The position numbers and the translations under genes are program-made. 64,000 nucleotides of DNA. Source: Escherichia coli O157:H7. Its GTDB lineage: Bacteria; Pseudomonadota; Gammaproteobacteria; Enterobacterales; Enterobacteriaceae. How positions within the stretch are numbered: position 1 is the stretch's first letter; the number at the start of each line of letters is the position of its first letter. The notes beneath the pieces were generated by a model. That model did not search any database. It worked only from the letters and a program-made list of their open reading frames with translations, and had not been told where the DNA came from. This document shows, one piece after another, positions 61,701-61,806 of this stretch. Where the stretch lies: the NCBI RefSeq assembly GCF_013167455.1, contig NZ_CP038328.1; one strand, 5' to 3'.

Positions 61701-61710
61701 TCAAGGTTAT

Positions 61711-61738
61711 CTCCCGCAATGGTTTATCGTTGCGGGAG
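61711..61738 (+). other. stem-loop in the damX-dam intergenic region (possible RNA structure / attenuator)
   Basis: Perfect 9-bp inverted repeat ctcccgcaa / ttgcgggag with a 10-nt loop; no U-tract follows. Confidence 0.35.
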
Positions 61739-61806
61739 TTGCCTGAAGCGCTGGATGCTGTCGGAGCTTTCTCCACAGCCGGAGAAGGTGTAATTAGTTA
61801 GTCAGC

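Follow-up and report, generated by a model that had tools for sequence, protein, structure and literature searches.

A lineage-restricted stem-loop between damX and dam of Escherichia coli, selected for pairing in the mRNA, adjoins a conserved dam leader

The REP hairpins between malE and malF, reportedly described by Newbury and colleagues in 1987, are said to stabilise upstream mRNA segments, and in the mRNAs of the MS2 maturation gene and of hok a long-range pairing occludes the start codon. The latter two are the closest analogue for the dam leader of E. coli, not for the stem-loop just before it (hairpin 1) that is our main subject. As in MS2 and hok, AUGCUG(UC) of the leader is predicted to pair with (G)UCAGCAU over the dam AUG, and a competing local hairpin would form first on the nascent RNA; unlike them, the dam leader fold is so far a prediction and, with both strands nearly invariant, shows almost no covariation. 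Hairpin 1 itself resembles the malE-malF hairpins in being a stable, GC-rich stem-loop without a U-tract, placed in an operon right after the upstream stop and transcribed with both genes, but it is single copy, and Adams et al. 2021 list no 3' end for it in their Term-seq tables. With intrinsic terminators it shares the stem length, the GC content and the place after a stop codon, and U-tracts are present in some of its positional counterparts in other Enterobacterales. On the other hand, hairpin 1 has only three U in the eight bases after the stem, these bases are polymorphic, the downstream gene is co-transcribed and no 3' end has been mapped. The stem-loops at processed 3' ends of Rho-dependent transcripts, as described by Dar and Sorek 2018 (PMC6061677), are poor in U-tracts and a possible stop for exonuclease trimming, like hairpin 1, which differs from them in lying inside an operon with expressed distal genes.

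The window analysed is a stretch of 64,000 nt from E. coli O157:H7, and the features of its damX-dam junction are collected in Table 1. damX ends with a TAA stop at 61698-61700, the dam ATG is at 61807, the spacer between them spans 61701-61806, and rpe follows dam on the + strand. A 300-nt query across the junction (61601-61900) was 100% identical to O157:H7 chromosomes and matched 5,425 of 5,426 complete E. coli genomes, in which the two genes are annotated damX and dam. The junction was unmatched in one genome, and in one record the match lay on a sequence labelled as plasmid. The spacer of K-12 BW25113 is identical to that of the window.

The Dam level must stay low, as too little or too much of the enzyme raises mutation rates and disturbs replication timing and epigenetic switches. 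Post-transcriptional control of dam is poorly described in the literature searched; full-text searches of part of the literature returned no paper describing hairpin 1 or a dam leader structure, and Yan 2018 does not mention damX or dam. A promoter scan of the damX-dam spacer gave no promoter, and TGTAAT at 61789-94 was rejected as a -10 box since the critical A at position 2 is missing. A promoter-like site is seen in the 3' part of damX at 61431-61460 (TTGAAA, 18 nt, TACACT; nine of 12 matches), and it might be one of the published dam promoters within damX, for which Løbner-Olesen in 1992 and Wu in 1992 are said to be the primary papers. Both the co-transcription of damX and dam and the dam promoters inside damX are taken here from the literature cited by Khandige et al. 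2016 (PMC4981707), who also report that deletion of damX left dam expression unchanged.

Table 1. Coordinates in the window of the genes, of hairpin 1 and of the leader elements at the damX-dam junction.
Feature	Position	Strand	Basis or remark
damX coding sequence	60414..61700	+	ORF list and RefSeq annotation of identical E. coli sequence
5' strand (AGGU) of 4-bp outer helix closing the 45-nt insert	61704..61707	+	pairs with 61741-61744 (RNAfold)
hairpin 1, 5' arm: CUCCCGCAA (perfect 9 nt) with U61720, G61721	61711..61721	+	sequence, fold, pair counts
hairpin 1, loop GUUUAU	61722..61727	+	variable within E. coli (T61723G) and across Escherichia
hairpin 1, 3' arm: C61728, G61729 with UUGCGGGAG	61728..61738	+	sequence, fold, pair counts
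tail after stem, UUGCCUGA, without U-tract	61739..61746	+	61739 polymorphic (U/C); 61741-61744 form the outer helix 3' strand
P0, 5' strand GAAGCGC, start of conserved leader	61745..61751	+	pairs with 61820-61826 in the MFE fold; AGCGC invariant in all sequences
leader segment 1, AUGCUGUCGG	61755..61764	+	AUGCUG 61755-61760 predicted to pair with 61803-61808 (P1)
hairpin 2 (GCUUUCUCC / GGAGAAGGU)	61766..61789	+	Enterobacteriaceae-specific; contains segment 2, CCACAGC 61773-61779
leader segment 3, GUCAGCAU, overlapping the dam AUG 61807-61809	61801..61809	+	A and U of AUG predicted paired, P > 0.9
dam coding sequence	61807..62643	+	ORF list and RefSeq annotation of identical E. coli sequence
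P0, 3' strand GCGCUUU, dam codons 5-7	61820..61826	+	identical in 80/80 species

A first-pass annotation of this DNA had pointed out a perfect 9-bp stem-loop in the spacer, and the arms at 61711-61719 and 61730-61738 are indeed fully complementary across a 10-nt spacer of their own. RNAfold adds two inner pairs, U61720-G61729 and G61721-C61728, resulting in an 11-bp stem with seven G-C pairs and a stem-loop of -18.8 kcal/mol. The hairpin belongs to a 45-nt insert that starts directly after the damX stop, with the stem 10 nt past the stop, and ends just before the conserved dam leader. This insert folds at -24.6 kcal/mol, compared with -8.8 +/- 2.2 kcal/mol for dinucleotide shuffles (z = -7.0), and none of 200 shuffles was as stable. 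The outer helix is partly conserved, being paired in 88.5% of cells and broken in Citrobacter and Intestinirhabdus, and for every variant RNAfold keeps hairpin 1 as a separate domain, neither the MFE nor the centroid prediction containing a structure that competes with it.

Perfect hairpins of at least 9 bp gave 15 hits at about 10 distinct sites in the window, against 3.0 +/- 2.0 in shuffles. With so many sites one such hairpin is unremarkable alone, and its significance must rest on conservation. The others lie at 27869-27890, 29834-29856, 37915-37935, 40388-40409, 43209-43236, 47038-47061, 49560-49589 and 52273-52294, and the arm at 29834 (GCCGGATGC) is REP-like in look. At hairpin 1 a search with Rfam 15 revealed nothing relevant at E <= 10 in 58000-64000, nor did an Rfam scan of six related loci. 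A REP, BIME or MITE repeat was rejected, as a 49-nt query covering the hairpin (61698-61746) hit a single place in each of 5,425 E. coli genomes.

The first-pass annotation had further stated that the hairpin lacks a U-tract, and is therefore unlikely to be an intrinsic terminator. We agree on both counts. The eight bases past the stem hold three U where about five or more are needed, the first of these bases is polymorphic and a terminator scan was negative; hence we reject a canonical intrinsic terminator, even though the stem does lie within the GC-rich range of about 5-12 bp.

The stem is conserved and covarying in Escherichia, the Citrobacter freundii group and Intestinirhabdus, which settles the doubt, raised with the original observation, that it might show neither covariation nor conservation. 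We counted the pairs of the 10-pair stem in a set of 13 distinct sequences (Escherichia, Citrobacter and Intestinirhabdus), and 98.5% of cells were paired, while controls with slid partners reached 26-51%. At the base of the stem E. coli has C-G, the other Escherichia lineages have U-A, and Citrobacter and Intestinirhabdus have G-C (five, four and four of the 13 sequences, respectively). One-sided changes occur at three more stem pairs, all but one of them from C-G to U-G or from U-G to U-A, and a U-G pair can form on the + (mRNA) strand but not on the other. In the stem core none of 16 sites varies among five Escherichia lineages, as compared with eight of 27 in the loop and flanks (Fisher p = 0.015) and 85 of 233 at the third codon positions of dam (p = 0.001). 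The variability of the loop and flanks is not distinguishable from that of the third codon positions, and they evolve at about the synonymous rate. The arms are still recognisable in Salmonella. We conclude that the stem of hairpin 1 is under selection for pairing as plus-strand RNA.

Within E. coli no other part of the spacer is as polymorphic as the hairpin region, and 45% of the 5,425 genomes are non-reference when alleles are scored over the 49-nt query. The reference allele of K-12 and O157 is carried by 2,974 genomes. It is followed by T61723G in the loop (809 genomes), by G61729A together with T61731C, which puts one A.C mismatch into the stem and folds at -20.8 kcal/mol (323 genomes), and by T61739C in the tail (223 genomes); the remaining alleles, including G61729A alone (U-G to U-A) and C61715T (C-G to U-G), account for about 1,100. 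All alleles examined fold, at -18.6 to -25.4 kcal/mol, and it should be noted that those fetched were picked for being variable. The first U of the tail is a C also in E. albertii, E. whittamii and Escherichia sp. MOD1. The RNA-level constraint on the stem is only moderate, and a U-rich tail is not maintained.

Further we compared the spacers of related species, using a Dam protein scan with one genome per GTDB species, from which the best 80 Enterobacteriaceae species were kept and the damX stop was located. A homologous hairpin was found in 13 of these 80: four Escherichia, seven of the Citrobacter freundii group, one Intestinirhabdus and one Salmonella, the last with about 85 nt inserted into the loop. 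Five species (four Phytobacter, one Kluyvera) have unrelated strong hairpins in the same slot and three (Yokenella, Trabulsiella) have small ones. The other 59 have the dam leader but no hairpin; for 44 of these the gap between the damX stop and the conserved AAGCGC block is just 3-8 nt, and in Klebsiella and Raoultella 13-17 unstructured nt take the position of the hairpin. With 59 of the best 80 species lacking it, the hairpin is not needed for dam expression in the family and is not a general or required regulator of dam. Hairpin 1 is an ordinary accessory, lineage-restricted mRNA hairpin.

A protein search for distant Dam homologues returned close relatives only, mostly Citrobacter. The wider comparison comes from a metagenome scan with a degenerate Dam N-terminus pattern that excluded the Enterobacteriaceae codon 12 (GGG). 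It gave 120 loci, which carry no taxonomic labels; their full-length Dam products share 48-80% identity with that of E. coli, and in most cases a DamX-like gene precedes dam. Where DamX ends in PWVKP[VL]SQVKKE (Dam about 70% identical), each locus carries one or two hairpins rich in GC. These fall into at least five unrelated sequences, with stems such as GGGGCCGG..CCGGCCCC, GCCGGGG..CCCGGC, GUUAGCCCUC..GAGGGCUAAC and CGGGGCCGUAA..AUGGCCCCG; the eight-base tails contain 1-4 U and in most cases no U-tract, and the last hairpin ends 1-8 nt before the AAGCGC block. In independent lineages the distance to the damX stop varies more (about 4-33 nt) than that to the leader (1-8 nt). Terminator-like U-tracts were seen in two other lineages, L107 (AAAAGGCUGCGAUUUGCAGCCUUUUACUU) and L157 (AUGGCAACCGGGUUGCCAUUUUUG), and GUUU or GUUUU tails in several other positional counterparts, while the group with a DamX ending in PWV[RK]P..QVQQDLKK mostly has no hairpin. 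A slot hairpin that recurs and is often lost argues for a modest, replaceable role that depends on structure rather than on a specific sequence.

From the established knowledge of intercistronic stem-loops we infer what such a role might be, and tentatively, with more doubt than confidence, we put first the reading that the stem-loop passively marks a boundary within the polycistronic mRNA, as a barrier to 3' exonucleases. Hairpin 1 would then be an RNA-level boundary element of the aroK-aroB-damX-dam transcript and would not terminate transcription. An endonuclease would first cut the short-lived dam-proximal RNA, the GC-rich stem would halt the 3'-to-5' exonucleases (PNPase, RNase II), and the damX-proximal message would outlive the dam part, whereby the two expression levels would be uncoupled. 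One mark of an intercistronic mRNA-stabilising hairpin is a stable stem-loop between co-transcribed genes under RNA-level selection, and this mark hairpin 1 bears. The reading draws on its stability (11 bp, z = -7), on the selection for pairing and on the short half-life of dam mRNA, 2.2 min in Salmonella (PMC12455584), as well as on the recurrence of unrelated strong hairpins in the same slot and the exclusion of REP/MITE and Rfam families.

The barrier reading is weakened by the Term-seq record. The tables of Adams et al. 2021 (PMC7815308), which are thresholded peak lists, contain one 3' end in this operon segment, at 3516762 on the minus strand, which falls within damX, 544 nt from its start, and among the listed 3' ends none belongs to the damX 3' flank with hairpin 1 or to dam. 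By these coordinates hairpin 1 would lie at about 3,515,982-3,516,009 (minus strand) in MG1655. This counts against a strong terminator and likewise against a strong decay barrier, which should show a 3' end. Further points that weaken it are the 59 hairpin-less species with the same leader and the share of non-reference E. coli alleles, the 323 mismatched ones among them. By itself hairpin 1 is of small importance, another intercistronic stem-loop that most relatives do without; its effect would go no further than fine-tuning the uncoupling of the damX and dam messages.

The same patchy distribution, E. coli polymorphism (with a common stem-mismatch allele) and lack of a 3' end in the Term-seq tables would also be seen if hairpin 1 were a tolerated self-folding insertion with no regulatory role, kept paired as a freed arm would be harmful. 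We regard this main rival of the barrier reading as possible, though unlikely. A palindromic 45-nt insert would derive from the ancestor of Escherichia, Salmonella and Citrobacter and occupy the one place between damX and the leader where an insertion is permitted, and its pairing would be kept by selection against mispairing of a freed GC-rich arm with the leader, or by template-switch correction. The fast turnover, with the big loop insertion of Salmonella and unrelated hairpins elsewhere, fits such an origin, as does the near-synonymous rate of the loop and flanks. However, that independent, unrelated hairpins occupy the same slot in many lineages suggests that a hairpin is favoured and not merely tolerated, and the U-G wobbles of Citrobacter show arms that have not been homogenised by template switching and nonetheless keep the RNA pairing.

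The leader downstream of hairpin 1 is nearly frozen. The 3' 61 nt of the spacer have no variable site among the Escherichia lineages (0/61; p = 4e-11 versus third positions) and are nearly invariant across the best 80 Enterobacteriaceae species. The same 80 species are identical at dam codons 5-7 (CGC GCT TTT), synonymous sites included, whereas at typical later dam codons the major codon is found in only 45-70% of species. In most of 45 distinct sequences the A and U of the dam AUG are predicted to be paired, at P > 0.9, by the AUGCUG/CAGCAU (61803-08) helix, and the predicted cost of opening the dam initiation region is 8-14 kcal/mol in nine lineages. RNA of nascent length is predicted to fold instead into a local hairpin of segments 1 and 2 (GCUGUCGG/CCACAGC), in which GCUGU (61757-61761) and GG (61763-61764) pair with 61773-79 and C61762 is bulged.

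Within Enterobacteriaceae we counted 0-2 double changes in the leader, not above controls, by MAFFT column counts, RNAalifold and covariance-model alignment, the last of which leans toward the structure of the model. These strict covariation tests are negative because both leader strands hardly vary. In the broader metagenomic set GCUGUCGG, CCACAGC and CGACAGCAUG persist and hairpin 2 does not, and in one lineage of that set (L107, L120 and L133) all three segments change together, to GUUGU, CAAC and GACAACAU. Conservation and thermodynamics, plus this one three-way co-change, are what the modelled leader structure is built on. An upstream ORF running from ATG 61755 to TAA 61793 (12 codons, MLSELSPQPEKV) was rejected as a conserved feature; it ends 13 nt before the dam ATG and has no Shine-Dalgarno, its frame runs into dam in Franconibacter, and a whole group of loci outside Enterobacteriaceae has CUG in place of its start. 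Each of the three frames has a stop codon at 61791-61801.

Two more hairpins lie inside dam. The stem-loop at 61921-61946 (GGGUCGGUGUU-UCUC-AACACCGACUU, followed by UUUUCUCGUUAU to 61956) is terminator-like by the scan. In a set of 71 distinct Enterobacteriaceae sequences, compensatory synonymous changes affect three of the 11 stem pairs and amount to 48 cells; at two of the pairs they are G-C/A-U exchanges, each in 18-25 sequences. None of 500 shuffles reached the observed covariation score and slid controls scored much lower. Among the 3' ends listed in the thresholded tables of Adams et al. 2021 none lies at 61921-61946. A 9-bp hairpin at 61836-61859, over dam codons 10-18 (GCAGGGGGC-AAGUAU-CCCCUGC), is predicted in all best 80 species, and codons 12 (GGG) and 17 (CTG) are identical in 80/80 of them.

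We speculate that 61745-61826 could be an Enterobacterales-wide RNA switch limiting Dam synthesis, with hairpin 1 and its counterparts as a 5' clamp or insulator, but as a whole this proposal is distinctly unlikely to hold. Segment 1, through GCUGU and GG, would first pair with segment 2 on the nascent RNA and leave the dam AUG free. Its AUGCUG would then re-pair with segment 3 (61801-08) and bury the AUG, and the buried fold would be locked by AAGCGC/GCGCUU (61746-51 with 61820-25). Each transcript would be translated briefly, or only when a factor or ribosome opens the fold; the non-homologous hairpins of other lineages would have the same 5' role as hairpin 1, and the in-dam hairpin at 61921-61946 could add a second control layer. 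A 2025 study in Salmonella found that H2O2 induces the dam transcript without accumulation of Dam protein (PMC12455584), and this mismatch is compatible with control of dam at the level of translation.

Considered by itself, a role of hairpin 1 as clamp or insulator for the dam leader seems rather improbable. The hairpin might stack on P0 and stabilise the predicted fold that buries the start codon, or it might shield P0 from melting by ribosomes that terminate at the end of damX. The MFE fold places the outer helix of the insert immediately against P0, hairpins of independent lineages keep closer to the leader than to the damX stop, and the leader begins 3-8 nt past that stop in 44 of the best 80 species. 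The argument is purely geometric, however, and adjacency is weak evidence because short inserts are necessarily near both neighbours; moreover the position is taken by unstructured nucleotides in Klebsiella and Raoultella.

The first-pass annotation had also considered an attenuator of dam expression. Its reading as a non-terminator stands, while the attenuator idea fits the leader at 61745-61826, and possibly the in-dam hairpin at 61921-61946, better than it fits hairpin 1. As a leaky attenuator, hairpin 1 would make polymerase arriving from the aroK and damX promoters pause or, at low efficiency, terminate, and would so lower the read-through into dam, which we find improbable. A GC-rich stem just past a stop codon, the terminator-like counterparts in L107 and L157, the GUUU and GUUUU tails elsewhere and the low level of Dam would all suit it, but the E. 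coli tail is negative in the terminator scan, its first U is replaced by C in the 223 E. coli genomes and the three other Escherichia named above, in Citrobacter, Intestinirhabdus, Kluyvera and Phytobacter 1-2 of the eight tail bases are U, and no Term-seq 3' end is seen at the hairpin. A classical terminator/antiterminator attenuator was rejected, there being no U-tract and no alternative pairing of either arm in the predicted folds. Any control of dam is more likely to reside in the conserved leader than in the hairpin beside it, and this leader and the in-dam hairpin at 61921-61946 are the better candidates. The value of hairpin 1 is that of a pointer to the frozen leader with codons 5-7, to the predicted occlusion of the start codon and to the covarying hairpin within dam.

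It is highly improbable that hairpin 1 serves as a 5' stabiliser, protecting a processed or separately initiated dam-rpe-gph-trpS RNA from 5'-end-dependent attack by RNase E. Stem-loops at the 5' terminus do stabilise E. coli mRNAs, for instance ompA, and in many lineages the hairpin is near the 5' edge of the dam leader; the 5' end would have to be made by cleavage just upstream or by a promoter late in damX, but the only promoter-like site found, at 61431-61460, is about 250 nt upstream. A DNA-level palindrome, as a protein-binding or recombination site, is hardly credible in spite of the perfect inverted repeat in E. coli, as two arm differences in Citrobacter keep U-G on the mRNA strand and give A.C on the other, with loss of the DNA symmetry, the 10-nt spacer is variable and most relatives have no hairpin.

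More distant damX-dam spacers (L089-L208, for example L099, L111 and L150), with Dam 57-63% identical and a DamX C-terminus of the form AKSLxQVHREI, have a strongly conserved -10-like box, TACAAT or TGTTACATT, about 40-45 nt upstream of the dam ATG. Judged from its sequence, the box suggests a proximal dam promoter with no obvious counterpart in E. coli. The spacers of L158, L162 and L166 (255-317 nt) contain long GC-rich inserts that fold very strongly (down to -104 kcal/mol) and resemble clusters of repeated palindromic elements.
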